Virus record (IMG/VR): IMGVR_UViG_3300025849_000010
Location: 95,619-159,618 of that record
Strand: one strand, 5' to 3'
From: a virus
Length of the DNA: 64,000 bases
Part shown: in pieces, positions 8,701-28,456 of the stretch
Layout of the letters: every line of letters begins with the position of its first letter
Position numbering within the stretch: the first letter of the stretch is position 1
Program-made: the position numbers and the translations under genes
The notes under the pieces: generated by a model
Databases searched by the model: none
Told to the model about the DNA's origin: nothing
What the model saw: only the letters and a program-made list of their open reading frames with translations

Positions 8701-11700
8701 TGCAGAAAACAGAACTGGTAACATTACATTTAAAAACACAGTTACAGTTGGTGAACTTTCAGCACTGAAACTTGCAGTTTCGGATGTTGTTATTGAAGCA
8801 ATTTCAACTGATCCAGGACTAGGCGACAACGAACCAGGTGGTGCTACAGATACACGTTTGATTACGCAGAATGCAGCACGTAGCTTCTTAGCAAACAGAC
8901 TAGGTGACTTCATTGACAAGAACGTATCTACTAACTCAGTTAGTGGTGCTGTTCCGCAGATGAACGCACAAGGCTTGTTAAACTCGGATATTATTCCAGC
9001 AACACGTAACTTTAGTTTGTTCACAACAGATAAGAAGTTTGGTAGATTTAACCTAACTGATGATATTCCTGCGCAGGAACCGCTACAAGGCGATATTGCA
9101 CAAGAACGTTACTCACGTACATTCTTTACATTAAGTGCGCCAATAGCATTGAATGAAGACGATGTTATTATTGAATTAAACACTGGAGCAACTGCTATTG
9201 TTGATGAAGACAACGGCGGCGCGGCTACTGTTTATCTTGCTAACATCGAAGGAACGTTTAGTAATAATATTAGCGGAAACGTACTTAATGTAAGAGGAAG
9301 TAACACTACTACATATATTACTAATACTGGTTCAAGTGAAGTACGAGACATTCAGTACACAATGGTACAAGACTCGTCGAGTCAGTTCCTAAGATACTTA
9401 CCATCAGGCGCAGCTTTTGTTAATGGACAAACCATTACAGCAGCTAATTCAAAGACACAAGGTGTAATTACCGGTCAAGTTGAAGGTGTTGCATTGGCAC
9501 TTGATCTTGGAAATATTAGTACAGGTAATGGATATGTTCCATCAACTGGTTCACAAACATATAAGGGTGTTGTACTTTCAAATGTTAGCGGAACAGGCAC
9601 AGGTGCTATTGCAGACATTAGTGTAACCAACGGCAAAGTTACAAACGTTGACCTTACAAGAGGCGGCAGCGGATATGCTGTTGGTAATGCATTAACTGCA
9701 ACAGTTGACCAACTAGGCGGACAGAACACACAAGACTTCCAGGTTAGCATACTTGGAGTTGATAATAGAGTGTTTGTTGAGTTGCTAGCAGGAAAGTTTG
9801 TTGCTACAACAAGTTCAAATGATTATACTGAAGACGGCAACGCAGTAGTAACTACTGTACCGTTAGGAAATACAACACTTACTGCATTTAATGCTGACAC
9901 TATTGGCAACGGCGGTAATGTTGATTATCCAACTTCACGAATAACAATTAATTCGCATATATTTGATAACGGAGATGTAGTTAACTATGCTAGTTCACCA
10001 AATCCAGCAATTGGCGGATTTATACAAGGTGAAAGTTACTTTGTTAAAGTTGTTGATGCAAACACTATTGAACTTTACAACAGATACGATTTAAATGCTG
10101 CAAATAAAGTAATATTTACTTCCAGTTCTACAGGCACACATGCGTTTATTATTAACTATGTTGACACACGTAAAGATCGCATTTATGCACAGGACCACGG
10201 ATTTACTAACGGACAAGCATTCCGTTTTGTAGGAGCTAATCCTCCAACTGGCATGGCAAGCGGCGGATACTACTATGCTGGTACAGTAAGTCAGAATACA
10301 TTCTCGGTACACGAATTCCAGCAAGACGCAGAAAACAGTGTTAATGGAGTAACTCAAGGTGCTATTAACTTTATTCAAACTGGTAGCGGTAGTGCAGACT
10401 TTATTCACCAAAATATTACAATTTACGGAGAAGTTAACACATCAGGTAATGTAGAAACTAACTGGGCACTAACTGGTAGTGCAAACGTAGACGCATCAAA
10501 CATTGTGTCGGGTGTTATTAGTACATCACGTTTGGCAGCAGTTGGTACAGCGAATAGTGATACTTACTTAAAAGGTGACAGCAGTTGGGATTATGCAACA
10601 CGTACAGTTCGTACAGCACTTAATTCACCGCTTAACATAACTGGTAACTTCTATACAAGCGGCGGTCAAAACTTCTACTTCAAGAACACACAGTTTGATA
10701 TTGACAGAACTGATGGCACTTTAGGTAACCAAAGTTTCACTAACCTTGGTGTTGCAGCATTTAGTAAAGCACAGTTTAACGTAAACTCAGGTGAAGTTGA
10801 ACTAAAAGCAGGAGTACTAGATGCAGGAACACTAGACGGACTAGATAGTCAATACTTCCTAGATCCAGGAAACTTACTAAATCCAGTTCCTGTATCACGT
10901 GGCGGTACACAGATAGATCAATATATTGCCGGGGATATGATTTATGCAACATCTCCAACAACACTAAACAGACTGCCAATTGGTAGTCAAGGTGCTGTTA
11001 TGGTTGTTGATGAATTAGGGAACCCAGCATGGTCAAATGACGTTGCTCCGTTTGTTGAAGATACTAATAACTTCGGTGTTTCAAGACCACTAGAAATACG
11101 ACATGACGTAACAAATACTCCAGCAGTTGGCATTGGTGTTGGTATGCAGTTCCAGGTTGAAACTGCTAACAATAACAGAGAAGTTGGCGGCACTATTGAC
11201 GCTGTTGCATCAGACGTAACATTTGGTTCAGAAGACTTTAGCTTTAAGTTTAACTTAATGGCAGCAGGCTTCTTAGCAGAGCGTATGGTACTAGACTCAT
11301 TAGGTAACTTAGCTATTGACGGTGACTTAAATGTTGACGGTGGTGATATTAAAACTACTAAAACAAGTGCAACTGTATACGATACTACAGTTACATCACT
11401 AAGCATTGGTAGAGCTGCAACTTCAGTTACTATTGGCGCAGATAAAACTGGTGAACTAAGAGTACGAAATGCAACTCTAGTAGTTGGCGGTGACTCAATA
11501 GAAACACAGCCAGTTGATGCAAAAATTAAAGCACCAAATTCACTAGGTACTAACAAGCAAGGTCCAGATTTAACTATTCAAGGCGGCGCAAGTACAGGTA
11601 GTGGCGTAGCAGGATCAGTATTCATTGATACTGGTGCTAGTGGATCAAGCGGCAGTACTTCAAATACACAAGTAAATCGTGTAGAAATTAGCGGATCAGA

Positions 11701-14482: not shown

Positions 14483-14857
14483 ATGGGAAACATGACAAGA
14501 GCCTCGGCAAGAGATTACTTTACCGGAAATGCCGGGGCTCAGTTACGAGGATTTGACAAAACTATTAACTTTGCTGCTACAGTGTATGTTACAGGAAACG
14601 TGGACGGTGGCCGTGCTGGAACTGCATATGGTAATAGACGTTATGAATACGTAAATGCACCTAACAGTGATTACAACGGAAATGTTTATCCAAATACTAC
14701 ACAAGTAGATGCAACCCAATTAATTGATCAAGCACTTGATGCAATACAACGAACTTGCGATTTAATTGAAGGTCGTATTAGCAATAGTTACTTTGATTGG
14801 AGAATATGTCACGCAAGTTGTCATTATAGCTGCCACGGATCAAGAGGGAGAAGATAA
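14483..14857 (+). CDS. Putative radical-SAM substrate/precursor protein A with C-terminal (CHxS)3-RGRR
   Basis: Ends WRICHASCHYSCHGSRGRR; starts 3 nt after the fibre stop; lies upstream of nine rSAM genes. Confidence 0.75.
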   Translation: MGNMTRASARDYFTGNAGAQLRGFDKTINFAATVYVTGNVDGGRAGTAYGNRRYEYVNAPNSDYNGNVYPNTTQVDATQLIDQALDAIQRTCDLIEGRISNSYFDWRICHASCHYSCHGSRGRR

Positions 14858-15029
14858 TGGCAGGATTAAGTCATGCACAATTAGAAGCTCGGTACTATGG
14901 TAATGCATATACAAGAATACGCACATTTGATAAAACTATTAACGTAGCAGCTACAGTATATTATGCGCGATATAATGGTAGTGGCCAAGGAACTGCATAT
15001 GGTAATAGACGTTATGAATACGTAAATGC
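14618..15029 (+). repeat. Exact 41-nt direct repeat between the two precursor genes (14618-14658 and 14989-15029)
   Basis: ggaactgcatatggtaatagacgttatgaatacgtaaatgc is identical in both copies. Confidence 0.9.
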
Positions 15030-15240
15030 CGGGCAAGGTGCCTTTGCTAATACAGATATTCCAAATGGTGTAGGTGACAATTTATTAATAAGAGCAGGTG
15101 ATATACAAACATTTGCTTCAAATGCAATCAGCAGAACAGTAAATGGCATAGAAGGAAGAATTACAAATTCGTATTTCGACTTTAGAATATGCCATTCAAG
15201 TTGCCATTATAGCTGCCACGGCAGCAGAGGGAGAAGATAA
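14857..15240 (+). CDS. Putative radical-SAM substrate/precursor protein B, paralog of A
   Basis: Ends FRICHSSCHYSCHGSRGRR; shares FDKTIN.AATVY, GTAYGNRRYEYVNA and IEGRI.NSYFD with A; TAATG stop/start overlap. Confidence 0.75.
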   Translation: MAGLSHAQLEARYYGNAYTRIRTFDKTINVAATVYYARYNGSGQGTAYGNRRYEYVNAGQGAFANTDIPNGVGDNLLIRAGDIQTFASNAISRTVNGIEGRITNSYFDFRICHSSCHYSCHGSRGRR

Positions 15241-16302
15241 ATGATAGGCGAAAGTTTTTACTATATCAGTAATAAAAAATACTTAGGACGATCTACTGCA
15301 ATGCTTTCGGCATTATCAGAAAGTCCGTGGAGCGGAGTTCAATCAAGACGTATTAGCATAATAATGCCAGATGGACATAGTGCAGTGCAAGAAAGTTATG
15401 CATCGTCGTTAAGTAATGATTATCCATTAGCAAACGCTGAAGATATGATAACATTTGCTAATTATAGCGATATTGATTCTTGGGAATATCTCAATAACAA
15501 TACTAAGGAATTTTTATTATTTGAATCAGCGCATGAGTTTTTGAAGATGTATGCAAAGTATACAGCTTCGCTATTAAAAACAACAACTAACAAAGATGTT
15601 AAACAAGTTGTTAAGGAATTTATTGTATTAGCAACTACTAGAGATGTAACATACTCGACAATGGGCGATTACAATGAAGGCGATATCAATGCAGCAGTAG
15701 AGGAAGTATTTGCAGAAAACGTATTCTATGATATTCCTAATGCAACCAGTAAGCACTGGGGTTACGATATTCTTTTCTTTATTAATGACAAGTACAATGA
15801 AAATGAAACCTATGCAGAAATTAATGTAACAACAACTGCATTTTTAAGAGAAAAGTTTACAGTACATAGTGATAAAATGATTCATGAAGTTATTAGTATG
15901 TTACAATCTAAAATTGGTTATGTAAGTGTTATTAACAATATTATTGATTGGTTTAATAATAACGGAAATACAGAATGGAATAGAGCTGAGTTTGTGAAAG
16001 ATGTATTTCAAAATACGAATCGCATGCAAGCACTATACAGATTACGTGACTTTTGGAACGATGTAGGTTCTAATAAAGAATTAATGACATTAATTGACGG
16101 GCATGACGAATGGGAATACGAAGAAGTATATAAAGAGTTTGCTAGAACTATTCCAATTGTCATACAAATTGCAGAGGGCGGATTTAATTTTGCAAATAAC
16201 GAAGCACTAAGAAGTGCATGGAGCGAGGTAGAGTTTTTCTATAAACGTAAAAGTCGTATTCCTTATTTGCTGTTTAAAATATTACCACTTGTACCGGAGT
16301 AA
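15241..16302 (+). CDS. Hypothetical protein in the rSAM cluster (353 aa)
   Basis: Long ORF abutting precursor B; no recognisable motif and no Cys. Confidence 0.7.
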   Translation: MIGESFYYISNKKYLGRSTAMLSALSESPWSGVQSRRISIIMPDGHSAVQESYASSLSNDYPLANAEDMITFANYSDIDSWEYLNNNTKEFLLFESAHEFLKMYAKYTASLLKTTTNKDVKQVVKEFIVLATTRDVTYSTMGDYNEGDINAAVEEVFAENVFYDIPNATSKHWGYDILFFINDKYNENETYAEINVTTTAFLREKFTVHSDKMIHEVISMLQSKIGYVSVINNIIDWFNNNGNTEWNRAEFVKDVFQNTNRMQALYRLRDFWNDVGSNKELMTLIDGHDEWEYEEVYKEFARTIPIVIQIAEGGFNFANNEALRSAWSEVEFFYKRKSRIPYLLFKILPLVPE

Positions 16303-16304
16303 AA

Positions 16305-17012
16305 ATGACACAAGAAAATTACACACTGCCACTAAGTCCAACAGATTTAGCAGAAATATATAAAATAAAAACAAGCTCGGAAGATTACGTTCTCAAGGTT
16401 GATTATTTTAAAAGTAAGGAAGTACTGTCAGTAAAACATATACTCGTATATATTGCTAACACTAACTTTAAAGTACAGTTTGAAGGCATTGACGATGAAT
16501 TAATAAATGAATATATAATTTCTAATTTTATGGTTGATTGTCCGTTACTTTCTAGATACATTACGTTAATTGCTAAACGTAAACTAGGACAGGAATATAA
16601 TCAAGTTGACCAAGCATTAAATACTATAATGTCTGATGCTGACATTGATTCATATTTAGAAAAGAATGGCGAATTATTTGACGACTTGTTAGATAAACTA
16701 AAACATGTTACACTGTTTTGTTTAGATCAAGCTGGCAAATATGCCGACAAGTACAAAGAATTTATACCAGAAGAGATTGAACGTGCAGATGAAGAAACTC
16801 AAATTGGACTAAATATTGTATATATTGCAACATACTCGTTGGACTTGTTGTATTTGTTAGGTAATAAATTTGGTCCGTGGCCTACTAATAAATTAAATGT
16901 TAGAGTGTTTAATGATGTTAGTAAGTATCAAGGAGCAGACCTATATAATACATTACTAAAATATGGTGTTGCAACTAGTATGTTAGAATTATTTGACGAG
17001 GAATCAGCATAA
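16305..17012 (+). CDS. Hypothetical protein in the rSAM cluster (235 aa)
   Basis: SD-like GGAG upstream; TAATG overlap with the next gene. Confidence 0.7.
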   Translation: MTQENYTLPLSPTDLAEIYKIKTSSEDYVLKVDYFKSKEVLSVKHILVYIANTNFKVQFEGIDDELINEYIISNFMVDCPLLSRYITLIAKRKLGQEYNQVDQALNTIMSDADIDSYLEKNGELFDDLLDKLKHVTLFCLDQAGKYADKYKEFIPEEIERADEETQIGLNIVYIATYSLDLLYLLGNKFGPWPTNKLNVRVFNDVSKYQGADLYNTLLKYGVATSMLELFDEESA

Positions 17013-18193
17013 TGACAATGCAACAATCATATTGTAAACAGATGAAGTATAGTGGGCCAGAAAGTCTACCTCCTTCACACGCCCAGAAGTTTGACGTATT
17101 AATTAACTTTGAAGGCCTTACTGGCTGCGAATATGGTTGTTTAGGATGTTTTGTTAACAAGAATCAAGACGTTACTACAATGAATCAAATGCTAACAACT
17201 GCAAAAGAACTTGCAGATGGTGTAAAGCGTACAGGTTTAAACTTACGTGAGTTTGTTGTAGGTCCGACAGATTTATTCTCTGCGTCAAATACTGATAGCA
17301 TTCTTAATAATACTATTATACAAGATATAATGCGCGAACACACTAATGCACGTATTGCTACACCTAGTAAGATAGACGGCGTGAGCATGGAAAGGTTGCG
17401 AGAAGTATTTGCAATACTTGATGATCCTTCTAAGTATAGAGACGAAATGATCATTGAGTTTATTATGCCAGTTGGCGATGTTGATCGTATACTAAATGAC
17501 GAAGAATACTTTAAAGATATTAAATCAAAATTAGAATTCTTTAAATCCGAAACTCCCAAGAAAATTGACTGGAGTTGGACATTACAAGCAAGTAATGTTA
17601 TGCAAAAACATCTAACTAAAGAAAACTATAATAAACTGCTATATAAGATTCTTGATGAATATGAAACTATTCTAGAAATGAACCCAGCGTTCTCTAGAGC
17701 ACCGAGTGTATTGCACCAGCGTAAGAACTTAGTAGCATGGAATAACTTCCTAAAAGAAGTAGTAGATCAAGACAATTTTAAAGACGTTACAATGAGTATG
17801 GCTAACTTATATTGTAACTCCATGAACTTCATAGGGTTAACTGTTGTTCCTGGATTAGAGACGCCACGTGTATTTTTAAATGTAATGTTACACGAACAAG
17901 CATTCTTTACACAGCATAGGGATTTAGAAGTAACAGGACTAAGTTTTGAAGAAATTCTAGTCAAGAGGGATCACTTAATAGCACAAGGGTTAGCTAAGTC
18001 GTCTAAAGTTAAGGATTGTGCAGATTGCAAATATGCAGTAGCATGTGCAAACAGACTAATATTCCAAGCACAAGATGCAATGAACATGCACGAATGTTTA
18101 ATGCCGCTAGAAGTATTAGAACTGTATAATCCGTTTGTTACTAGTAACGAACAGTGGAACGACGATGCTTTAAAAATCGTCAATGCTCGTTAA
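17012..18193 (+). CDS. Atypical radical SAM protein 1 (GPTD type)
   Basis: GCEYGCLGCFV (CxxxCxxC), VVGPTD, C-terminal CADC-x5-C-x16-C. Confidence 0.8.
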   Translation: MTMQQSYCKQMKYSGPESLPPSHAQKFDVLINFEGLTGCEYGCLGCFVNKNQDVTTMNQMLTTAKELADGVKRTGLNLREFVVGPTDLFSASNTDSILNNTIIQDIMREHTNARIATPSKIDGVSMERLREVFAILDDPSKYRDEMIIEFIMPVGDVDRILNDEEYFKDIKSKLEFFKSETPKKIDWSWTLQASNVMQKHLTKENYNKLLYKILDEYETILEMNPAFSRAPSVLHQRKNLVAWNNFLKEVVDQDNFKDVTMSMANLYCNSMNFIGLTVVPGLETPRVFLNVMLHEQAFFTQHRDLEVTGLSFEEILVKRDHLIAQGLAKSSKVKDCADCKYAVACANRLIFQAQDAMNMHECLMPLEVLELYNPFVTSNEQWNDDALKIVNAR

Positions 18194-19211
18194 CCTAAAC
18201 TCAACTCCTACAGGATTTAACAATTATATAGAAGGCATAAGCCCTAAGGATAATAACTTTCTTAGGACAGAAGTTCATGCTGATATATTACATGGATGCA
18301 GTCAAAAGTGTCCAGGGTGTTTCATTCCTAGAAAAAATCTTACTAATGCTGATCATCTTACAACACTATGCGATATATTGGAATCTAGTGCATATACACC
18401 TGATGATGTTGTAATAGGTCCTACTGATATATTTGATGCTGAAAACTTTTGGGACTTAATGGACCATCCTAGTATGAAACGTTTATACAGTATTGCAGCA
18501 CTAAGTTTTAACTCAACACTACTACAGGACTACGACACTGTACTTGCCAAACACACTAAGATTTGGAGTCTTTACGAAGGATTGGATCGTACGCCTGATA
18601 TAGATTTTAAAATAGTACTTGATATTACTAGATATTTACAAGGCGATATTGAAGACATGTGTCGCAAACTAGAACTTTTTAAACAAGGTAGTGTACAGTT
18701 TAGAGTAAACTATTACCCGGGTATATTTGATCGTGTGAGCTATAATGATTTATGTGATATGATTAAAGAAGACTTCAATGCTCCAGTAGTTATATTGCCA
18801 GGTTTCTTAACAGACAGAAATAGTCGAGGTAAAGTTAGTAAATTACTTCCGATGTTTTTAGACGAGCTACGTAAACAAGATATAAGACCCGAATACAAAC
18901 AGTTATACACGATGTTTGATGCAAACTTTAATAGTCACGGATGTACCAATTATAGTTTTTACAACGGCAGCTTGTATATGAATCCATTTGTGTTTGACGG
19001 AATATTGCAGCGTACACAAGAATTTAAAGTAGACAATCTTAATACTAAAAACTTTTTAGCTGAAAATTTATCATATGCAGCATCTACTAAAGAATGTGAA
19101 AGTTGCGAATACTTAATGAGCTGTGCAGAGCGCAATGTATTGTTCTATATGAAGTCGAGAAATTTAACAGAGTGTGTTACAGTAAAGGAGTATACAAATG
19201 CCGGTCATTAA
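18183..19211 (+). CDS. Atypical radical SAM protein 2 (GPTD type)
   Basis: GCSQKCPGCFI, VIGPTD, CESC-x5-C-x16-C. Confidence 0.8.
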   Translation: MLVNLNSTPTGFNNYIEGISPKDNNFLRTEVHADILHGCSQKCPGCFIPRKNLTNADHLTTLCDILESSAYTPDDVVIGPTDIFDAENFWDLMDHPSMKRLYSIAALSFNSTLLQDYDTVLAKHTKIWSLYEGLDRTPDIDFKIVLDITRYLQGDIEDMCRKLELFKQGSVQFRVNYYPGIFDRVSYNDLCDMIKEDFNAPVVILPGFLTDRNSRGKVSKLLPMFLDELRKQDIRPEYKQLYTMFDANFNSHGCTNYSFYNGSLYMNPFVFDGILQRTQEFKVDNLNTKNFLAENLSYAASTKECESCEYLMSCAERNVLFYMKSRNLTECVTVKEYTNAGH

Positions 19212-20379
19212 AAATAACTTGTATTATGAGCTTACTACAGAAACGCAAACTAAGCCAGTAAGTGCAGTAAAAATACAGCTTGATGTGTTAGACGGGTGTG
19301 TACACGCTTGCCCTGGGTGTTTTGTACATCGTAGAGGAAATGCACCTGAAGTTGATCATTTAAAAGATTGCCGAAACTTTGTAAAACGAATTACAGATGT
19401 AGGTGTTTTAGTTGACGAAATACTCATAGGCCCAACTGACTGTTTATCTAGTGAAAACTTTTATGAAGTAATGAGCAATACTGATTTGTTAGCAATGATA
19501 AATGAAAACTCTCCTATACTTGCTTTTACTACTACATTTTTAGAAAAGGATCTAACACATTTAGATCGTTGGATTACGTTTTTACATGACAATGTGAATA
19601 CTGACACTGAAATAGAAATTGGCATAGCAACTGATCCTATGCGATATAAAGATATACTTTATATACAGCAATTAAAACGCTGTATTGCATATGTCGACCA
19701 GCATTTAAAACATGAATGTACATATACGTTTATTGTTAATATTAGAAACTATGACCTAGACTACGAGCAAATACATGATTTTGTAGTGAAGCAATTTGAT
19801 ACAACAATTGACTTTATTCCAAGTGTAAGTCGCAGTCATAAAGCAAGTATCATACTACCTACACTAAATCAATTCAATGAATTTTTTGAAGCATTACCAG
19901 AAGATACTCATTTAAATAATATTATGGTAGATCACACACATGCTGGGCATAATTATACCGTATTAAATTTTAAAGGAGGACAGTGGTATCTAAGTCCGTT
20001 CCTTTATGAAAATATGGCATTGTATGATAATATGTTTGCAGTAAACAATCTAGACGAAGCATATGATCTTACTGTGTCACAAGTAGATCGAGCTAAAGGA
20101 ACAGTGTGCGAAAACTGTGATTTATTTTTTAGTTGCTACAATAGAAAAATTATTTTATTACGTGACTACTTGGGTACTAAAGAGTGTATAGCGCCTAAGC
20201 AAAATATGTTAAAAAATATACATAACTATAATAAAAGTGCTGCTGAAATGTATGACTGGACAGGATATACTGTTGAGGGTGATAAGCAAGGATATCGTAA
20301 AAAATTCTTAATAACTAAAGACGGCGATGAAAGATTAGATGAAATAAAAAAGGTGTATCATGTCAATCGTAAAGGATAA
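19198..20379 (+). CDS. Atypical radical SAM protein 3 (GPTD type)
   Basis: GCVHACPGCFV, LIGPTD, CENC-x5-C-x16-C; SD AAGGAG. Confidence 0.8.
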   Translation: MPVIKNNLYYELTTETQTKPVSAVKIQLDVLDGCVHACPGCFVHRRGNAPEVDHLKDCRNFVKRITDVGVLVDEILIGPTDCLSSENFYEVMSNTDLLAMINENSPILAFTTTFLEKDLTHLDRWITFLHDNVNTDTEIEIGIATDPMRYKDILYIQQLKRCIAYVDQHLKHECTYTFIVNIRNYDLDYEQIHDFVVKQFDTTIDFIPSVSRSHKASIILPTLNQFNEFFEALPEDTHLNNIMVDHTHAGHNYTVLNFKGGQWYLSPFLYENMALYDNMFAVNNLDEAYDLTVSQVDRAKGTVCENCDLFFSCYNRKIILLRDYLGTKECIAPKQNMLKNIHNYNKSAAEMYDWTGYTVEGDKQGYRKKFLITKDGDERLDEIKKVYHVNRKG

Positions 20380-21454
20380 TTATTGGGAAGCAACAATGGG
20401 TCATAAAGACTATAATATCAGTGTAGGTGATGCACATGATATAAAAGTAAACATGACAGTTGACGTCCTTGACGGGTGCATACATGCTTGTGAAGGATGC
20501 TTTGTTAATCGCAGAAGACAGCAAGCATCTAATGATCAGTTTTCCAAAGTACTAGCTGCACAAAAAATGTTTAATCAAAATAACATTCGATTTAGCAGCA
20601 TAATACTTGGTCCTACTGATGTCTTTGGTAATTTAAATATACAGGACGTTTTAAAATTTGATAGTTTTAAAGAAGTAGTAAGTAACTGCACCACTGTCGG
20701 AATGATTAGTACACTGCTTAACGATGATACTCATATCAATCCTATAATAGATGGCTTCAACGCTATACCTAAATGTGAAGGTTTCTTATATGACTTTCAA
20801 GTAGTTATTGATGTTAAACGAGCACTTGATCCAGAATATAGAAAGAATCACTTAGCACGTATACATGATGTTTTAAATAGATTTACTGATCCCTTAAACT
20901 TTACTATAATTTTTAATATGGATCAAGACTTTGCTGAGTTTGGAAATCTAGCAGAAATATGTCGTGTAATAAAAGAAGAGTACGACACTATTGTAGAGCC
21001 TATTCCTAGTTATCAGCGTTATGGTAAAGGAAAAATACACAACGATATTATTAGGGCGTGGGTTGATATAATAGAAGACACGTTCACTAAAGAAAATCAA
21101 GAATACCTAGCCATGACAATAGCTGACAAAAATCAAGGTGGCGCACTTGAATTAAATTATACATATAGTGCAGGAGAATTTTATTCAACTCCGTTTGTTT
21201 ATGAAGTTGCACTTATACGTGACGAAAAGTTTAGAGTAAAAGATCCAACAGATATTAAAAGTTGGACTAGCTTAAAAACAGACTTGTATATAGATCAGCT
21301 TGCGTATTCCCCTAAAACGCTGCATTGTGAAACATGCAATCGTCGTGAAATATGTTTGAAAAAACACGTATTAAGTTATATGGAGCATTTTGACTTTACG
21401 GAGTGTGTGTATCCTAGAGAAGTATTAAATGAATATAGGCCGTTAACATGTTAA
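20360..21454 (+). CDS. Atypical radical SAM protein 4 (GPTD type)
   Basis: GCIHACEGCFV, ILGPTD, CETC-x5-C-x16-C. Confidence 0.8.
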   Translation: MSIVKDNYWEATMGHKDYNISVGDAHDIKVNMTVDVLDGCIHACEGCFVNRRRQQASNDQFSKVLAAQKMFNQNNIRFSSIILGPTDVFGNLNIQDVLKFDSFKEVVSNCTTVGMISTLLNDDTHINPIIDGFNAIPKCEGFLYDFQVVIDVKRALDPEYRKNHLARIHDVLNRFTDPLNFTIIFNMDQDFAEFGNLAEICRVIKEEYDTIVEPIPSYQRYGKGKIHNDIIRAWVDIIEDTFTKENQEYLAMTIADKNQGGALELNYTYSAGEFYSTPFVYEVALIRDEKFRVKDPTDIKSWTSLKTDLYIDQLAYSPKTLHCETCNRREICLKKHVLSYMEHFDFTECVYPREVLNEYRPLTC

Positions 21455-22575
21455 AAAATGATTGGCAAACTTATCTGCAAAATAATAAACAATCTCTTTC
21501 ACCAGAGGGGTTTATAGATCCTGCTGATCAAAACAAGATAAAAATTCAGTTAATGCTTGAAATATTAGAAGGTTGTGCTTACAACTGTTCGGGCTGTTTT
21601 GTTAAAAGACGAAAAAACTTTGGACAGGGATTAGGGCTAGACTATGCTGCACAACTTGTTGACGAGTTAACTGATCAATATGTATTAGATGATATTATTG
21701 TAGGACCTACTGATTTCTTCTCCAGCGGAAATATAATACAAGTCTTAGAAGATCCTAGATTTAAAAAGATAGTAAACGCATTACCCGAAGACGGCGGACT
21801 ACAGCATAACTGTTCAATAGACTTTTTTATAGGAAATGATCGAGTAAAAGAAATTATTACTTATATTGAAAATAGCTATCTAAAGGATCGTCCGTTTGAT
21901 GTACAAATTGCAGTAGACTTGCATATGTTAGATAATCCACATGTACACGATTTAATAAGTGAACGCCTAGAAGCTATGGAAAATAGTTCTGTAGAATATG
22001 AAGTAAGCCTGCTGTGTAATATAACTCAAGACATTGACGACGATGTATTAGACAAAATTGAAACTGTTAGAAACAAGTGGAATACTGTTGTTGAATGGGG
22101 GCCTAGTTTAGTACGTGCCATGACAAATAGGCCTGATAAAATGTTAGGTATGATACAAGGATGGAATGAAAGTATAGGAAAGGTTGCTAGCATAGATGAA
22201 AAGCGTTTTACACAAAACTTTATATGGCAACAGAGCGATACTAGTCATAAAAACTTTAATGAAGTAATTGTTACAGTTAATAATGACCAGTTATATATAG
22301 TTCCGTTTTTATATGAAAATTCTCCTATATATCATCCTAGTTTCGAAGTACCGATAGGCGAAAATATATTAAACAGTATTTTTGATAAAAGGCACGAATT
22401 GCAATTAACACAATATGCTAACATTCCTAACTTAGTATGCAACGGATGTAAGTATGTAGAAAATTGTAGCTCTAGATTAATACCAACGCTAATCACAGAT
22501 GTAGTTAAGCATAACCAGTGTCTAATAAATAAAAACATAATGGCATTATACGACAATATAGGATATAATAAATGA
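21448..22575 (+). CDS. Atypical radical SAM protein 5 (GPTD type)
   Basis: GCAYNCSGCFV, IVGPTD, CNGC-x5-C-x17-C. Confidence 0.8.
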   Translation: MLKNDWQTYLQNNKQSLSPEGFIDPADQNKIKIQLMLEILEGCAYNCSGCFVKRRKNFGQGLGLDYAAQLVDELTDQYVLDDIIVGPTDFFSSGNIIQVLEDPRFKKIVNALPEDGGLQHNCSIDFFIGNDRVKEIITYIENSYLKDRPFDVQIAVDLHMLDNPHVHDLISERLEAMENSSVEYEVSLLCNITQDIDDDVLDKIETVRNKWNTVVEWGPSLVRAMTNRPDKMLGMIQGWNESIGKVASIDEKRFTQNFIWQQSDTSHKNFNEVIVTVNNDQLYIVPFLYENSPIYHPSFEVPIGENILNSIFDKRHELQLTQYANIPNLVCNGCKYVENCSSRLIPTLITDVVKHNQCLINKNIMALYDNIGYNK

Positions 22576-23780
22576 GCTGCGGAACAGAAATACTAAAAGC
22601 ATTAATGCCGGATAACATTACTGATGATCACTTGTTGGACACAAAGGCACAGCAAGAAGCAAATGCAGTAACACACGCAATATTAGAGCGTAAGCGTCCT
22701 CTTATTGGCGAAATTGAAATAACACTTTTTGAAAACTGTCCTATTAATTGCGACTTTTGCTTCCATGATAAAGAAAGCGAAGTAGGCATGACATATGAAG
22801 AAATGCTAATGAAACTTCCTCTGGTAGAAGCACACTGTAAAAAGATGCAGGGCAAAGTACATGCTATGCAGTTTAATATGGTAGGTGGAGAGCTGTTTCA
22901 AGACCGTGCAAAAGATACACTGTATCCTATGTTTTTTGATTTAATGGTAGAAATTAAAAAAATAACAGATAGGTACGGACACGTTATACAAGTAGTTTGG
23001 GTTAGTAACTTTTTGTTTAAGTATCACGAAGATGTACGCAAACTGCTAGACGATCTAAATGCAGTAGACATACCAAGTAAACTGATTGCTAGTTATGATC
23101 TAAGTGGACGTCCTACAGGCGGACAATACACTAAAAATATCGAACGTTTTAAAGATTATATTTCTACTATCAATTTAGTAGCAACAACAGACAGTATCAA
23201 TGCATTGTTTGCAGGAGATGATTATTTCAATTATCTATATGAAAACTTTGATTTGTTCTTTGATGATTTTATTCCAGATCCGGGATACGACCATTTAGTA
23301 CCAGCTGATTCGCTTTACTTAAAGTTTATGAAATACATTGCTGATAATTATCCAGAAGTAAATCCGTATAAAGAACTTATAGAAAATGATGTTAATCAAA
23401 TGCATTGTATGAGCTTAAACAAGTTAACTATTTTTCCGGATAACACAACTGCAAATTGCCGTTGGCATCGTTATACACGCAATGATTTTCAACACGCATA
23501 TATTAGAAAAGACAACACTAACCTCATGCAAGCATACATGGACGAAGTTGGTTGTTTAAGTTGTCAATATTTTGATCGTTGCGGCTTCCGTTGTTATACG
23601 CAATGGGACTGGAAGAATCGTGCTAGGGATTTACCACCTGGCATTTGTCCTATAAAAGAGTTCTTTAATTATGTAGGGGATACTGATCAAACATCATCTC
23701 TTCCTCATAATAAGACCTTACGTCGGGCACCATTCCCGTCTGAGATGAAGGATCAGGAAGGCTTATATGGTCGAGAATAG
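22572..23780 (+). CDS. Radical SAM/SPASM-domain protein 6
   Basis: CPINCDFC, VGGELF, SPASM-like HC...IFPD...NC...CLSCQYFDRCGFRC...CP. Confidence 0.85.
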   Translation: MSCGTEILKALMPDNITDDHLLDTKAQQEANAVTHAILERKRPLIGEIEITLFENCPINCDFCFHDKESEVGMTYEEMLMKLPLVEAHCKKMQGKVHAMQFNMVGGELFQDRAKDTLYPMFFDLMVEIKKITDRYGHVIQVVWVSNFLFKYHEDVRKLLDDLNAVDIPSKLIASYDLSGRPTGGQYTKNIERFKDYISTINLVATTDSINALFAGDDYFNYLYENFDLFFDDFIPDPGYDHLVPADSLYLKFMKYIADNYPEVNPYKELIENDVNQMHCMSLNKLTIFPDNTTANCRWHRYTRNDFQHAYIRKDNTNLMQAYMDEVGCLSCQYFDRCGFRCYTQWDWKNRARDLPPGICPIKEFFNYVGDTDQTSSLPHNKTLRRAPFPSEMKDQEGLYGRE

Positions 23781-24084
23781 CATTGTAAGTTTCTTTATCT
23801 TCGCTATAGGGTTTAAAGTACGGATCATTGCCGGCTAATAAATCTTTATCATCTAGTAGCTCGTAGAAATCGTATTTAAAATCTAAACTTATCCAATAAG
23901 CATAACAGATTGCTACGAAATAACTTTTAGCAGGATACACCCATTCGTCTACACGTTCGTAGAAATGTTTCACTGCCCAAATAACACTGTCTTCTTCTGT
24001 ACGAATGTCGACTTTGTTTAAGTCGTCAGTAAATTCTGTTGCAGTACTATTAAATAGTTGTAATCTAGTCTTCCAGTTCAGCAT
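23665..24084 (-). CDS. Hypothetical protein in the rSAM cluster (139 aa)
   Basis: Start overlaps the end of rSAM 7; last gene of the minus arm; aromatic/acidic composition. Confidence 0.65.
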   Translation of the reverse strand: MLNWKTRLQLFNSTATEFTDDLNKVDIRTEEDSVIWAVKHFYERVDEWVYPAKSYFVAICYAYWISLDFKYDFYELLDDKDLLAGNDPYFKPYSEDKETYNAILDHISLPDPSSQTGMVPDVRSYYEEEMMFDQYPLHN

Positions 24085-24982
24085 ACCAGTCTATTAGTCC
24101 CTTATATCCATTACAGCCGTTGTTTAAGTCTTTAACATATCGATAATGTTCAGTTAAGCATTTACCGTAGTATTTACAATTATGACATATTTCACTGACG
24201 TTTTCTGTAGACTCTTTTGAAGCCCACAACAAGTATTCGTCAAACGTATTATATTCTTCAAAAAACTCATTATCGTTCTTGTCAAATTCAAGCACACCGA
24301 ATTTAGCATCAGGCGTAATGTATACATGATCGTTACTAAATGCATTACGATTGCCTTCTAATACATCTTCTAAATCATCTACGTTAACAAAATCAAACTG
24401 CTTTAATACAGGAGATTCTATCCATTGCTGCACATGTTGTTCAAAATCTCTATGTGTAACAGGGTGTGCATTTGCTTGATTAGTTGAGTAAGGTTTTATT
24501 TCTACACACTTAACATTTTGCATCATATTAAATGTATTAATCATTAAGTCTACATTAGTAGCTAATACCTTAGGACTTGCTAAAACTAGTACACTAATAT
24601 CCTTAGGAAAAAGCATCATATTCTGTAATACTTTATCACTTTGTTCTCGAGCTTCGAAGTCATAGCTTACACTAATATGCACATCATCATCTAAAAAGAA
24701 ATCAGGCCTTGCACTTAAATTAGTATTGATGTTAATTCTACCACTAAAATATTTTCTAATAACAGTTTTCAAACTATAAAAATATTCTTTATCTAGCATA
24801 CCTATTTCGCCACCGTATAAATCTACGTGTGTAATCGGTACAGACACTTCACTAAGACGCTTGTCTAGATCTTCCGGAGTAATACGCTTTTTATTACCTA
24901 GTTGGGCTGTAGTAAGATAACAAAAGTCGCAGCGAAAGTTACAAAAATATGTAGGATTGATACTAACAGTAAATTCAGTCAT
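24065..24982 (-). CDS. Radical SAM protein 7 with a C-terminal Cys cluster
   Basis: NPTYFCNFRCDFCY, LYGGEI, CHNCKYYGKC...C. Confidence 0.85.
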   Translation of the reverse strand: MTEFTVSINPTYFCNFRCDFCYLTTAQLGNKKRITPEDLDKRLSEVSVPITHVDLYGGEIGMLDKEYFYSLKTVIRKYFSGRININTNLSARPDFFLDDDVHISVSYDFEAREQSDKVLQNMMLFPKDISVLVLASPKVLATNVDLMINTFNMMQNVKCVEIKPYSTNQANAHPVTHRDFEQHVQQWIESPVLKQFDFVNVDDLEDVLEGNRNAFSNDHVYITPDAKFGVLEFDKNDNEFFEEYNTFDEYLLWASKESTENVSEICHNCKYYGKCLTEHYRYVKDLNNGCNGYKGLIDWYAELED

Positions 24983-26009
24983 ATTCCCTCACATAAGGAG
25001 TAACGCTATCAGGGTCTTGATTATTCAACTTTAAAATAGTTGGAGCAAGTTGTTTCATTTCAAAACAATGTTCTTCTACTTGACCTTCACGCTTGTGATC
25101 TCTAACAGTTTTACGACAGCCGTTACATATTCTAAACATAGGACACGTTAGGCATGCCTGCTTCATTGAAATTAGTTCTGGCGCATCTTGCAACGGTGTA
25201 CTAAATCCTCCTGACATTTCATATTCAAAGTCGATAGGATAATCTTTGTCGTCACCTAAACTACCGCAACTATAATAGTCGCCGCCTGGATTGAACGCAC
25301 GTATGCCTTCGTCACAATGTCTGTTTTGAGGACAAGTAGTTGTATCACTTTGTAGCCTACGAACCATTTGTTGTGTATTGTATTCCCAGTCCATTAGTCC
25401 AGCGTTGTAAATATCAATGTATGCTTTATATATTTTACTAAGACGATATGTATAGCCCTGCTCGCCGCTTGCCATTGCATAGTTTACTTTGCAAACTACA
25501 TTCATCTTTTTAGCAAGCTCTACTGTTTTAATAATAGTATGCTCGTTCATGTCGTCAATAACAGCAATAAACTCAGGACGATAACCACAAAGTTCTAACA
25601 TTTTATCTGATACTTTCCAGAAGTCTTCTTCTGTAAATATTGAAAAGTCACCTTTAAGTCTACCAGCACCGTATTGAAAACTAGTCGAGATTCCCATACG
25701 TGGGTGATTGAATAAATCTATCCACTTTTCGGGTTTAACGTAAAACGGCCATAAGTTGCTAGTAAAGCTAATAGTTGCCGGCATATCGTGTGTATCGAGA
25801 TATTCTATTATTTTCCAATAATATTCTGGAGACATCATGAGTGGATCACCACCGTTAACAATAATTGTATTAGTGTCGGGATATCTATCTAAAAATCTAA
25901 AGATATAATCGTGATCTAATTGTCCTGCATTATTAGGATCGATCTTAGTCGAAGAACAAAATGTACATTTGAAGTTACATGCTTCAGTGGGTTTAATAAT
26001 AAGATCCAT
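24975..26009 (-). CDS. Radical SAM/SPASM protein 8
   Basis: KPTEACNFKCTFC, NGGDPL, C..C..YYSCG..CLTCPMFRICNGC..C. Confidence 0.88.
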   Translation of the reverse strand: MDLIIKPTEACNFKCTFCSSTKIDPNNAGQLDHDYIFRFLDRYPDTNTIIVNGGDPLMMSPEYYWKIIEYLDTHDMPATISFTSNLWPFYVKPEKWIDLFNHPRMGISTSFQYGAGRLKGDFSIFTEEDFWKVSDKMLELCGYRPEFIAVIDDMNEHTIIKTVELAKKMNVVCKVNYAMASGEQGYTYRLSKIYKAYIDIYNAGLMDWEYNTQQMVRRLQSDTTTCPQNRHCDEGIRAFNPGGDYYSCGSLGDDKDYPIDFEYEMSGGFSTPLQDAPELISMKQACLTCPMFRICNGCRKTVRDHKREGQVEEHCFEMKQLAPTILKLNNQDPDSVTPYVREYD

Positions 26010-27037
26010 TACGGCGCTAACTCCAACATTAGTGTTTTAGGAGCAGGACATATATCGCCTTCCCATGCAAGTTTGTAACAATCGCCACCGCAGTAAAACT
26101 GCACAGGACATTCATAACATTTAGAATTTCTATTCATTTCAGTTGCAATATTACACATTCGACTTGGATGAAATAATACATGATCTATGTCATCAGAAAT
26201 GTGTGCATAGTGTGCAGTTGGCGCACTATTGGGACAACCTGCAATGCGACCGTCTGCATTTATAGTAAACAGTTTTTGTTCACAGTCTCTACAGAATGTA
26301 CTTGCACGAGTAATGCCATCCTCAAACTTCATATATACACTTTCAATTGTAGAGTTGTATATTTTATCTCTAAGATTTCTTGCTTGTGTTTCCTTGTGCA
26401 ACTGTAAGTACCAATCTTGTATTTCTATATTAGTAGGAAATATCTTAGGATTGCGCACAGCATTGCCGTCTGAAGTTAATCTTTCAAAGTCAACTTCTTG
26501 TATACCTAAGTCGATCAAATATTCGATAACATCTGCAGGATTTTCTTGTATCATATCTTTACTTAAACTAACAAAACACTTGATGTCTACTCCATCTGCT
26601 GTTAGTTGACGCACATTATCTTCCCATAGTTTTTGCTGTTTAGCATTAGCCCAACGTATAAACGGATCGTAACTTGTACCTAAACGTTTGTGTAGTATTC
26701 CGTATATTAGATCAAGTTTCTCGTCTGTAAGTTTATATGTTAAGTTAGTGGTCATGCCGTAGTAAGCTCTGTCACCCCAAACATCATAAGTCAGTTTGTG
26801 AAACAGTTTCATATCTTCTACGGGTGCAAGCATAGGTTCACCGCCGTGGAACTCGAAAGCTATTCCGCTATTGGGCATTTTAGCATACAGTCTATTAAAA
26901 AAATCTGCTGTAGCACGGGGATCAAAATAAATCTTACGTCCGTTGATGCCATTAGTAAAACAATGAGAACAGTTTAAATTACAAGTCTCAGTTGTTTTAA
27001 TATAAGACATATACTGTGTGGCGTTATGTACGGTCAT
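26009..27037 (-). CDS. Radical SAM/SPASM protein 9 (anSME/peptide-maturase-like)
   Basis: KTTETCNLNCSHCF, FHGGEPML, CRDC..TINADGRIAGCP..CYECPVQFYCGGDC..CP. Confidence 0.9.
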   Translation of the reverse strand: MTVHNATQYMSYIKTTETCNLNCSHCFTNGINGRKIYFDPRATADFFNRLYAKMPNSGIAFEFHGGEPMLAPVEDMKLFHKLTYDVWGDRAYYGMTTNLTYKLTDEKLDLIYGILHKRLGTSYDPFIRWANAKQQKLWEDNVRQLTADGVDIKCFVSLSKDMIQENPADVIEYLIDLGIQEVDFERLTSDGNAVRNPKIFPTNIEIQDWYLQLHKETQARNLRDKIYNSTIESVYMKFEDGITRASTFCRDCEQKLFTINADGRIAGCPNSAPTAHYAHISDDIDHVLFHPSRMCNIATEMNRNSKCYECPVQFYCGGDCYKLAWEGDICPAPKTLMLELAP

Positions 27038-27500
27038 CTAATCCCCAAGATAGCATAATGCTATTGTCTTTATTTAAAGCACGGTGCGGTGTTTCTGCAG
27101 GCACAAACAAGCAATGTCCACTGTGTGCTGTTATCTCTGTACCGTTTATTTCTAATGTTTTACTTCCATGAGTAACTTGCAATACTAAGTCTACAGGATC
27201 GGTGTGAATACCGAATGATGGAGAATTAGGCTTTGCGTAGAACACATGACAAGTACCATTATTAAAATTACAAATCTGTTCATACTTTTCTAATTTAATT
27301 GTTATATCATCACGCAGCAAAAGATTATCTACTACTCCGAGATATGAAATATAATCATTTTCGGTTATATAATGTTGTAAGCCTTCACTGTCAATGTAGC
27401 TAGTCATTACTCTATTATATGCTAAGTCACTGCGGAGTATATCATAAAACTCTAACATTGACATTTTAACTTTAGGAATCATATCAACACCACACGTCAA
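27024..27500 (-). CDS. JmjC/cupin-4-like Fe(II)/2OG oxygenase
   Basis: SFGIHTDPVD (HxD), QVTHGSK and distal VPAETPHRA His, resembling YcfD/NO66-type protein hydroxylases. Confidence 0.65.
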   Translation of the reverse strand: MTCGVDMIPKVKMSMLEFYDILRSDLAYNRVMTSYIDSEGLQHYITENDYISYLGVVDNLLLRDDITIKLEKYEQICNFNNGTCHVFYAKPNSPSFGIHTDPVDLVLQVTHGSKTLEINGTEITAHSGHCLFVPAETPHRALNKDNSIMLSWGLDDRT

Positions 27501-28014
27501 ACGGCATGCAAATTCGCATGTCTTTTACAGTCTCGACATTGTGCCAAACAAAGCTAGGAAATATAAACAAATCACCAGCCTGAGGCTTTAATACAACAGG
27601 TTCAAATATATGATTTAAGTTACTGTTGTAACCTCTATTAGCATTACCTCTAGGATCGTGTAATACTAGTTCTCCGCCTACAGGAGGAGTTGCAAGATAA
27701 AGTATTCCAGTAAACTGACTTCCTAAGTGGTTGTGTATATGATGTGTTGCACCTTGTCTATAAACATGTACCCACCAGCTAAAAGAAAATGATTTCTGTT
27801 TTGGAAAGTCTGATTCTAAATAAGATTTAATAGAATTGTCAATAAACTCGTGTGCTAATTTTAATTCTGAATACTCGTCAATATCAGGACGCTCGTGATC
27901 ACTTATACCATCAGGAAACTTCATGATAATATCGTTAACTACATTGCCTAACGCAATTTGATCATCCCACGTAAACTGTGCAAGTGTAGTAGGCCAAAGT
28001 TCATTAAGTATCAT
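27484..28014 (-). CDS. Putative 2OG-Fe(II) oxygenase (phage TIGR02466-like)
   Basis: HIHNH..TGILYL..LVLHDPR..PQAGDLFIFPSFVWHNV..RICMPF. Confidence 0.8.
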   Translation of the reverse strand: MILNELWPTTLAQFTWDDQIALGNVVNDIIMKFPDGISDHERPDIDEYSELKLAHEFIDNSIKSYLESDFPKQKSFSFSWWVHVYRQGATHHIHNHLGSQFTGILYLATPPVGGELVLHDPRGNANRGYNSNLNHIFEPVVLKPQAGDLFIFPSFVWHNVETVKDMRICMPFDVWC

Positions 28015-28456
28015 TGTGATCCTCTATGTATTGCAAAACGTCAACTGCCGTCATGACTTTAGTCTTTATTGTAGCATTGTTTAATGTATTTCGCAACCCC
28101 TGATGTAAGGGTTTTGGCCAATTTCCAAATGTAACCCAACAGTAACCTGAGTGTTCGTCATTTAACAACGGAATAAATTCGTCATTTACAAAACATAGAT
28201 ATGTATGAAAATTAAACTTTTCATCATTTGATACAAATAGCTCTAATGGGATAACTTTAGCAAAAGAAGGAAGTTTGCCTAATTCTTCGGTTATCTCTCG
28301 TTGTAGACCTTCCCAAGGAGTTTCGCCATATTCATTTTTGCCGCCTACTAGTCCCCAGTGCTCAGGCTGTTTAACATGAGTTCGTTGTAATAGTAATACA
28401 CGTTTAGTTTTAAGGGAACAAATCAGAGCTCCACTACAAATTATTTTCTCGGACAT
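28004..28456 (-). CDS. NUDIX hydrolase
   Basis: Nudix box GGKNEYGETPWEGLQREITEELG. Confidence 0.9.
   Translation of the reverse strand: MSEKIICSGALICSLKTKRVLLLQRTHVKQPEHWGLVGGKNEYGETPWEGLQREITEELGKLPSFAKVIPLELFVSNDEKFNFHTYLCFVNDEFIPLLNDEHSGYCWVTFGNWPKPLHQGLRNTLNNATIKTKVMTAVDVLQYIEDHNDT

Follow-up and report, generated by a model that had tools for sequence, protein, structure and literature searches.

A portable cassette of radical-SAM enzymes and oxygenases accompanies a family of fibre-linked phage proteins with an invariant Cys-His tail

The window analysed here is the final 64 kb (64,000 nucleotides, positions 95,619 to 159,618) of the 159.6-kb IMG/VR virus record IMGVR_UViG_3300025849_000010, which belongs to a large marine phage and is rated 44% complete by CheckV. 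Between window positions 14483 and 28014 lies a compact cassette encoding two small paralogous proteins (S*-A and S*-B) that both terminate in CHxSCHYSCHGSRGRR, nine candidate radical S-adenosylmethionine (radical-SAM) enzymes (R1–R9), a cupin/JmjC-like oxygenase, a 2-oxoglutarate (2OG) Fe(II) oxygenase, and three further proteins (u353, u235, and u139). Neighboring genes abut or overlap by 1–20 nucleotides (nt), and the convergent ends of R6 and u139 overlap by 116 nt. Upstream of the cassette are a baseplate/virion protein and a 3920-residue fibre, and downstream are a gp15-like sheath stabiliser, a virion protein, a 1557-residue fibre-like protein, tail sheath, tail tube, and TerL. An original prediction, made from the sequence alone, had read the region as a modification locus inside the virion module. 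All of the features that it listed were located within 14483–28014: the two (CHxS)3-tailed paralogs, the tight packing of the genes, their position among virion genes, and the two oxygenases are as described, and no transporter was detected among the cassette proteins.

The locus is one member of a large, so far undescribed family, found in hundreds of phages and also in a few bacterial predators. S*-A and S*-B are 55% identical, and no further copy exists in the 159.6-kb record. In an alignment of 120 S* proteins, the only invariant columns were the tail C, H, S, C, H, S, C, H, R, G, R, and R. A search with a profile of these 120 members, which was independent of the tail pattern, yielded 844 cluster representatives at E ≤ 1e-3, of which 578 reached E ≤ 1e-10, and 137 of the 150 best matches ended in exactly three C-H-x-x units followed by R-x-R-R. 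Across the family, Cys and His were fixed and Ser was commoner than Asn, Ala, or Asp as the fourth residue of each unit. Because this fourth residue varies, the invariant core consists of Cys-His at a period of four and a basic end rather than of His-Xaa-Ser. The comparison of the tail with His-Xaa-Ser repeats, as originally drawn, is thereby weakened: the window proteins do have three HxS units, but across the family the Ser is often Asn, Ala, or Asp. S* proteins range from ~120 to 300 residues, and their bodies are merely 18–26% identical across cassette types. At the DNA level, a degenerate pattern for the tail plus stop codon occurred in at least 118 IMG/VR contigs and in 23 contigs of 185,579 species genomes. 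Near-identical loci are also present in independent metagenomes and, together with the exact tail pattern in at least 118 viral contigs, show that the locus is not a product of chance.

An AlphaFold2 (AF2) model of S*-B (predicted local distance difference test, pLDDT, 74) contains a helix, a long β hairpin, a second helix, and a disordered tail. Foldseek found no PDB match to this fold at E ≤ 0.001, and the best hits of a VIA-wide fold search (Z up to 6.0) were unrelated helical proteins. The possibility that S* is a duplicated auto-chaperone domain was rejected (hhalign probability 0.1%). Among isolated phages, the locus had no Megablast match and S*-B no tblastn match, the tail probably being masked by the low-complexity filter. 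The two S* genes of the window share an exact 41-nt identity (14618–14658 and 14989–15029, encoding GTAYGNRRYEYVNA), and their last 93 nt are 76% identical; the 41-nt identity and similar 3′ ends suggest gene conversion between the paralogs. Rare S* variants (P0141 and P0146) have four CHxS units and a Gly-rich GDGPG..GGGV end that replaces RxRR.

We called genes in ~120 related loci and assigned them to the proteins of the window. Homologs of the cassette radical-SAM enzymes were present in all 60 loci with at least 3 kb of sequence downstream of S* (mean 3.8 per locus) and in all 45 with at least 5 kb (mean 4.4). Five loci had no radical-SAM homolog, and these extended just 61–1649 bases beyond S*. 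Thus, in a co-occurrence test of the kind proposed in the original prediction, the tailed proteins proved inseparable from the radical-SAM array, and the prediction was not refuted. The commonest order of genes was cupin, R9, S*, a u235-like gene, a ~364-residue protein without assignment, R6, a ~200-residue protein also without assignment, R8, a 2OG-like oxygenase, the 2OG oxygenase, R7, and u139, from which a portable core of cupin, R9, S*, u235, R6, R8, R7, and u139 can be extracted. The order cupin-R9-S*-u235 recurs across phage lineages, including RSF1, DT01, and Atu_ph07, and in bacterial chromosomes. The u235 protein belongs to the same family as the ~238-residue product of the gene after S* in core-type loci (hhalign probability 100%), but homology between u353 and the ~364-residue core-type protein was unsupported (8.7%). 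In loci of the window type, one arm contains two S* genes, R1, u353, u235, R2, and R3, with R5 and R4 added in longer loci, and the converging arm contains R6, u139, R7, R8, R9, and the cupin (for example, loci L099, L113, and L120); in the window itself, R6 shares the plus strand with R1–R5. The radical-SAM set of Atu_ph07 consists of R9, R6, R8, and R7 only. Hence, although nine such open reading frames (ORFs) are indeed present in the window, a nine-enzyme locus is not typical of the family: the portable core has four radical-SAM genes, R1–R5 are lineage-specific, and the nine enzymes are a lineage expansion of the four-enzyme core.

All nine radical-SAM ORFs have CxxxCxxC close to the N-terminus, including the six on the plus strand (R1–R6, 17012–23780) and the three on the minus strand (R7–R9, 24065–27037). 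Against Pfam PF04055 (Radical_SAM, gathering cut-off 29.5 bits), only R7 and R8 scored above the cut-off (Table 1); R9 (22.7 bits), R3 (17.1), and R5 (15.7) fell under it, and R1, R2, R4, and R6 had no match in the Pfam scan. The full SPASM signature Cx2Cx5Cx3C is present only in R6 and R9 (residue 307 in R9). R9 also passed the cut-off of 27 bits for the TIGR04085 SPASM model, and the R9 alignment shows invariant Cys residues. R8 has a close variant of the signature and scored 18.9 bits, under the same cut-off, and R7 and R1–R5 have only a four-Cys C-terminal motif. R1–R5 are tandem paralogs of one phage family (phrog_31457) in which the SAM-binding GGE is replaced by GPT(D). The initial description of radical-SAM/SPASM genes thus stands for the cluster motif in all nine ORFs but for the full SPASM signature only in R6 and R9, and an HMM (hidden Markov model) scan of the enzymes left most ORFs under the Radical_SAM gathering score and all maturase equivalog scores under their cut-offs.

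The best named relatives of R9 are all peptide or protein maturases, namely PapB, anSME, DarE, DynA, HxsB, and the CXXX-repeat maturase. Those of R8 are DynA and anSME, with scores far under their cut-offs, and DarW, HxsC, and cyclophane synthases also appear among the relatives of R8 and R9. Scores against each of these named families were ~10-fold under the respective cut-off. R8- and R9-type enzymes therefore belong to the radical-SAM/SPASM maturase class but lie outside every described family. Between cassette types, R7, R8, and R9 match one another's counterparts at E values of 1e-98 to 1e-167 and are far better conserved than S* bodies, a pattern that fits enzymes recognising the invariant tail.

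The remaining cassette proteins include the two oxygenases. The cupin scored 26.8 bits against Cupin_2 (cut-off 27.2) and 23.3 bits against JmjC_2 (cut-off 22), and at least 90% of 51 homologs retain its HxD...H metal triad. In the 2OG oxygenase, HxH...H...R is retained. An AF2 model of u235 had a pLDDT of 92.8; Foldseek identified no fold for it, and a VIA-wide search gave a best Z of 4.6 and a few radical-SAM structures at Z 3.0–3.5, too weak for use. No match was found for u353 in family searches, nor for u139, for which an atlas look-up gave no lead. A predicted complex of R9 and S* with three 4Fe-4S clusters and SAM scored 0.02, which is evidence neither way.

Table 1. Features of the cassette and its flanks in the window
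Feature	Description	Position	Strand	Basis
Giant fibre protein	3920 aa; last ~170 aa (13967-14479) = probable auto-chaperone (IMC) domain	2717..14479	+	ORF, profile
Tailed protein A (S*-A)	124 aa; tail CHASCHYSCHGSRGRR encoded 14807-14854	14483..14857	+	ORF
Tailed protein B (S*-B)	127 aa; tail CHSSCHYSCHGSRGRR encoded 15190-15237	14857..15240	+	ORF
u353	353 aa; no family match; window-type cassettes	15241..16302	+	in 24 related loci
u235	235 aa; universal cassette component	16305..17012	+	hhalign 100% to ~238-aa gene after S*
R1	atypical radical-SAM paralog; CxxxCxxC at residue 39, GPT(D) not GGE, 4-Cys C-terminal motif	17012..18193	+	phrog_31457
R2	R1 subfamily	18183..19211	+	motifs, phrog
R3	R1 subfamily	19198..20379	+	motifs, phrog
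R4	R1 subfamily	20360..21454	+	motifs, phrog
R5	R1 subfamily	21448..22575	+	motifs, phrog
R6	core radical-SAM/SPASM; GGE; Cx2Cx5Cx3C at residue 328	22572..23780	+	phrog_1802 at 2.7e-24
u139	139 aa; no family match; always after R7	23665..24084	-	E 1e-31 to 1e-39 between cassette types
R7	core radical-SAM; 4-Cys C-terminal motif	24065..24982	-	Radical_SAM 32.6 bits; E ~1e-127 vs core-type loci
R8	core radical-SAM; SPASM-like domain	24975..26009	-	Radical_SAM 34.1 bits; E ~1e-167 vs core-type loci
R9	core radical-SAM/SPASM; directly before S* gene in most loci	26009..27037	-	TIGR04085 28.7 bits; in 74 loci
Cupin	cupin/JmjC-like Fe(II) oxygenase; R9 partner in most loci	27024..27500	-	Cupin_2, JmjC_2, HxD...H
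2OG oxygenase	2OG-Fe(II) oxygenase (PF13759, 2OG-FeII_Oxy_5)	27484..28014	-	65 bits; TIGR02466; in 26 loci
NUDIX hydrolase	probably outside cassette	28004..28456	-	NUDIX 60.9 bits

The NUDIX gene overlaps the last cassette gene by 11 nt but was rejected as a cassette member, because all of the ~120 related loci lack a homolog. Matches to the T4 late-promoter motif TATAAATA are depleted in the window (1 in 64 kb versus 7.6 expected) despite T4-like tail and head genes, and the late transcription signals of the record must differ from those of T4; with a single match, the motif was uninformative as a timing signal for the cassette. Outside the window, the same record contains another radical-SAM array, different from the first and about ten genes in size (G000:C1:19800-35000, locus L152), which has PP-loop ATPase-like, UDP-sugar dehydrogenase-like, and methyltransferase-like genes as neighbors and no Cys-His-tailed protein. 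In total, the record has roughly 19 radical-SAM-like genes in 160 kb.

The cassette is linked to a particular type of fibre gene. In ~70 loci, the product of the gene upstream of the cassette has a C-terminus that matches the C-terminal residues of the giant fibre (~3780–3920). Home-made HMMs placed an auto-chaperone-type C-terminus on a same-strand ORF no more than 2.5 kb upstream in 54 of the 70 phage loci that had at least 2.5 kb of upstream sequence. With the profile of the fibre C-terminal domain, matches were obtained to the phi29 gp12 auto-chaperone (3GQH, E 9e-5) and to the Dpo31 tailspike's chaperone domain. Pfam Peptidase_G2 scores for the phage copies were 20.5–24.5 bits, under the cut-off of 25, with the window fibre at 20.5.

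Cassettes in Bdellovibrionota extend this link to bacterial chromosomes. A 299-kb contig of a Pseudobdellovibrio metagenome-assembled genome (MAG) encodes R7, R6, a B12-binding radical-SAM protein, S* (202 residues), R8, the cupin, u139, and R9, adjoined by two Peptidase_S74 proteins and then directly by carB, carA, pyrB, lepA, and metK; these chromosomal genes led us to reject mis-binning of a phage contig for at least this genome. In a second, Bdellovibrio MAG, three S74 proteins are encoded directly upstream of R9 and S*. The Peptidase_S74 scores of these neighbors were 40–54 bits (cut-off 22). A search for the window tail sheath in five S*-bearing genomes gave no match. R9 orthologs were found in 7 of 201 sampled genomes of the phylum. 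Because the Bdellovibrionota cassettes adjoin Peptidase_S74 genes, the cassette travels with self-chaperoned fibres outside phage late operons as well. S74-ended MAT fibres are prey-recognition adhesins of Bdellovibrio, and the paper describing them does not mention radical SAM (PMC10769870). The extra B12-binding-domain protein (575 residues, L149:4153-5880, G002:C4) is absent from the phage versions of the cassette, and a small Peptidase_S74 fibre protein beside the bacterial cassette (L149:14597-15643) begins with a prokaryotic N-methylation (type IV pilin-like) motif.

Searches with R6 and R4 also reached cultured jumbo phages, including the Ralstonia/Burkholderia phages RSF1, RSL2, FLC6, and SURPRISE13, Pseudomonas phage pPa_SNUABM_DT01 (DT01), Agrobacterium phage Atu_ph07, and Sinorhizobium phage sequences. 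R6 homologs are encoded by RSF1, RSL2, Atu_ph07, and DT01. In RSF1, DT01, and Atu_ph07, the gene after a cupin gene and an R9-like gene encodes a protein of 178–296 residues, and these S* proteins end in CHSSCHSSCHGSRGRR (RSF1 ORF071), CHTSCHTSCHSARGRR (DT01 gp065), and CHSSCHASCHNSRSRR (Atu_ph07 gp170). Atu_ph07 gp164 (L146:17585-18298) aligns only to R7 residues 71–300 and has a 200-nt unannotated gap upstream; its start may be mis-annotated, or the region of the radical-SAM cluster may have been lost. The FLC6, SURPRISE13, and RP12/RP31 papers list cupin, radical-SAM, and 2OG genes as accessory with no function assigned, and a T4-like environmental genome with 12 radical-SAM genes was left unexplained (Nishimura et al., 2017; PMC5332604). 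Our literature search turned up no publication about the tailed protein, nor any about radical-SAM maturation in phages.

Published particle proteomics of Atu_ph07 (Attai et al., 2018, Supplementary Table S5; PMC6102473) bear on where S* is found. The gene numbering of Table S5 agrees with RefSeq, as gp180 (13,350 nt) and gp143 (771 nt) show. The S* homolog gp170 (296 residues, 31.89 kDa) was detected by 8 unique peptides at 35% coverage in gel bands 1–9, with its peak in band 1, whereas other Atu_ph07 proteins of 29–32 kDa peak in bands 7–8 (PMC6102473). The radical-SAM and cupin proteins gp164, gp165, gp168, gp171, and gp172 are missing from the table (PMC6102473). The upstream fibre-like protein gp176 (66 kDa) peaks in band 4 alongside proteins of 50–57 kDa (PMC6102473), a position that fits loss of its chaperone domain. 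These data suggest that S* is associated with particles and exists there as a high-mass species that resists heat and SDS. Together with the synteny to auto-chaperoned fibres, they lend support to the earlier proposal that the product is a virion or fibre component rather than a secreted peptide.

How does the cassette compare with known systems? The closest analogue is the bacterial HXS system, in which HxsA, a protein with five HxS repeats, is matured by the radical-SAM enzymes HxsB and HxsC together with HxsD; HxsA is modified by +8 Da on SHRSS, is able to bind DNA, and keeps phage DNA from entering (Li et al., 2026; PMC13128918). Both systems combine a folded protein, whose tandem His-containing repeats have three or four residues per unit and many basic residues, with several dedicated, adjacent radical-SAM enzymes, and R9 and R8 weakly match HxsB and HxsC. 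Membership in the HXS system fails, however. R9 scored 33.5 bits against HxsB (cut-off 370) and R8 22.8 bits against HxsC (cut-off 267.9), neither S* of the window matched the HxsA model (TIGR03979) at E ≤ 0.1, and no HxsD-like protein was found. Moreover, the S* repeat is C-H-x-x with an invariant Cys, in three units at the extreme C-terminus before an RxRR end, and the cassette adds cupin and 2OG oxygenases and sits in a phage fibre/particle context, whereas HXS is a periplasmic defence effector.

SPASM enzymes that modify Cys or Ser of functional proteins are a second point of reference; anSME acts on sulfatases and QhpD on QhpC. anSME is among the best named matches of R8 and R9, but their scores of 35.7 and 42.1 bits are ~8–10 times under its cut-off (TIGR03942, 349), no sulfatase motif is present in the cassette, and four to nine enzymes accompany each substrate here as opposed to one for anSME and QhpD. 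Like the substrates of the ranthipeptide enzyme PapB and the CXXX-repeat maturase (TIGR04115), the S* tail has a Cys at every fourth residue, and PapB is the best named match of R9 (42.9 bits, cut-off 340; 29.9 bits for TIGR04115, cut-off 350). Unlike those systems, S* is a folded protein with neither protease nor exporter nearby; to our knowledge, an invariant His and an RxRR end are not features of the PapB or TIGR04115 families. More generally, the clusters that make RiPPs (peptides synthesised on ribosomes and modified after translation) differ from this one, in which no cassette protein matched a protease, transporter, or PqqD-like protein, and there is no room for an N-terminal RiPP recognition element (RRE) in R7–R9 because these start at the cluster motif. 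The term RiPP-like, as used in the original prediction, is loose for S* proteins, which are folded, 120–300 residues long, and have no leader/core split, protease, or exporter. On the fibre side, the gene upstream of the cassette ends in a self-chaperone-type domain like those of phi29 gp12, K1F endosialidase (S74), and Bdellovibrio MAT fibres, but a Cys-His-tailed partner and radical-SAM enzymes stand beside the fibre here and none are known in those systems.

We favour, with slightly better than even confidence, a model in which a portable cassette of radical-SAM/SPASM enzymes and Fe(II) oxygenases matures a virion protein of the fibre module at its invariant tail, (CHxx)3-RxRR, a model that supports the original prediction in part. 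The two S* proteins of the window would be late structural-module proteins with the C-terminal (Cys-His-x-x)x3-Arg-x-Arg-Arg tail as the substrate. Before or during particle assembly, the tail would be acted on by the core enzymes R9, R6, R8, and R7, joined here by R1–R5. The most plausible chemistry would be formation of carbon-sulfur or carbon-carbon/nitrogen cross-links at Cys or His, and the cupin and 2OG oxygenases could add oxidative changes such as hydroxylation of His or Arg. Matured S* would then work with a trimeric fibre or spike that is folded via a self-cleaving C-terminal chaperone and may serve as its very stable oligomeric cap or partner.

Several points weigh against this model. 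Tail modification is what we infer, as are the residues involved, their chemistry, and the place of S* in the particle; neither mass shifts nor cross-links have so far been seen on a member of the family. Because R1–R5 have no GGE motif and sub-threshold Radical_SAM scores, their activity is uncertain. About 20% of the phage loci with adequate upstream sequence, mostly of one sub-architecture, have no detectable auto-chaperone gene, and RefSeq labels the S* protein of RSF1, ORF071, only a 'hypothetical protein' and its neighbor ORF067 a virion structural protein. The Atu_ph07 particles were purified only with polyethylene glycol, and RecA-like, single-stranded DNA-binding, terminase, and ribonucleotide reductase proteins are also present in the preparation (PMC6102473). 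Given such a preparation, incorporation of gp170 in particles is likely rather than proven, and its band-1 peak could come from aggregation. Finally, tails of Cys and His can bind metals without being modified.

An unmodified tail of this kind might be a metal-binding, trimer-locking motif with three Cys-His pairs from each chain lining the trimer axis, in which case the enzymes would act on the fibre protein or on a small molecule. We regard this alternative as unlikely, although several points favour it: Cys and His, invariant in the tail, are classic metal ligands; a period of four would put them on one face of a helix; the tail is disordered in the monomer model; and an SDS-stable gp170 trimer (3 x 32 kDa) would fit gel band 1. 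The fibre tips of T4 gp37 and gp12 likewise hold metal ions on the trimer axis. Left unexplained are the strict association of S* with the radical-SAM cassette (60/60 loci, bacterial chromosomes included), the invariant RxRR end, and the better conservation of the enzymes than of the S* body. A C-terminal site served by several radical-SAM enzymes and oxygenases also recalls the pyrroloquinoline quinone (PQQ) pathway, which pairs radical-SAM chemistry with oxygenases, and S* might serve as the scaffold on which its C-terminal residues are built into a cofactor, metallocluster, or small molecule that is used or released in infection (cf. PQQ, mycofactocin, and 3-thiaglutamate), with u235, u353, and u139 as possible hydrolases. 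That no protease or carrier (PqqD/RRE-like) domain was detected in cassette proteins, that S* bodies are folded and diverse, that a homolog is abundant in a particle preparation at 35% coverage, and that the linkage is to fibre rather than metabolic genes make such a scaffold quite improbable.

The nearest named relatives of the enzymes are RiPP maturases and the tail is a Cys-rich repeat, so that a classical RiPP has to be considered, in which the tail would be cut off and set free as a bioactive peptide, aimed for example at rival phages or bacteria. This seems to us very improbable: leader protease and exporter are missing, the 'leader' would be a folded domain of 105–290 residues, the genes lie in a late structural operon, and a homolog was detected in a particle preparation. 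We give hardly any credence to a role of the enzymes in modifying DNA, nucleotides, or sugars, with the tailed proteins as unrelated neighbors. A NUDIX gene does abut the cassette in the window, dihydrofolate reductase genes interrupt the RSF1 cassette, and the second radical-SAM array of the record lies among sugar- and nucleotide-type genes; but the NUDIX gene is absent from related loci, the core is dominated by SPASM enzymes nearest to peptide maturases, and the linkage of S* to radical-SAM genes is strict.

Maturation of the S* tail by the cassette, the reading that we prefer, could be taken one step further, and here we are doubtful: cross-links made by the radical-SAM enzymes in the Cys-His tail might turn S* into an oligomeric cap or partner of host-recognition fibres that withstands SDS and heat, and such enzymatic, radical-based virion maturation might be a portable module common to large phages and to predatory bacteria that grip their prey with phage-like fibres. 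Covalent maturation of phage particles is known to proceed by proteolysis or self-catalysed cross-linking. If tail maturation is true, then the finishing of a virion or fibre protein by dedicated radical enzymes would open a new chapter in phage assembly. The family, with its 844 cluster representatives, spans marine T4-like phages, soil jumbo phages of plant pathogens, and Bdellovibrionota, and it has cultured, tractable members in Atu_ph07, RSF1/RSL2, FLC6, SURPRISE13, and pPa_SNUABM_DT01. The cassette would explain the dozen or more radical-SAM genes of some marine phages, a puzzle since 2017 (PMC5332604), and its enzymes, which belong to no named maturase family, may perform Cys/His chemistry that is new.

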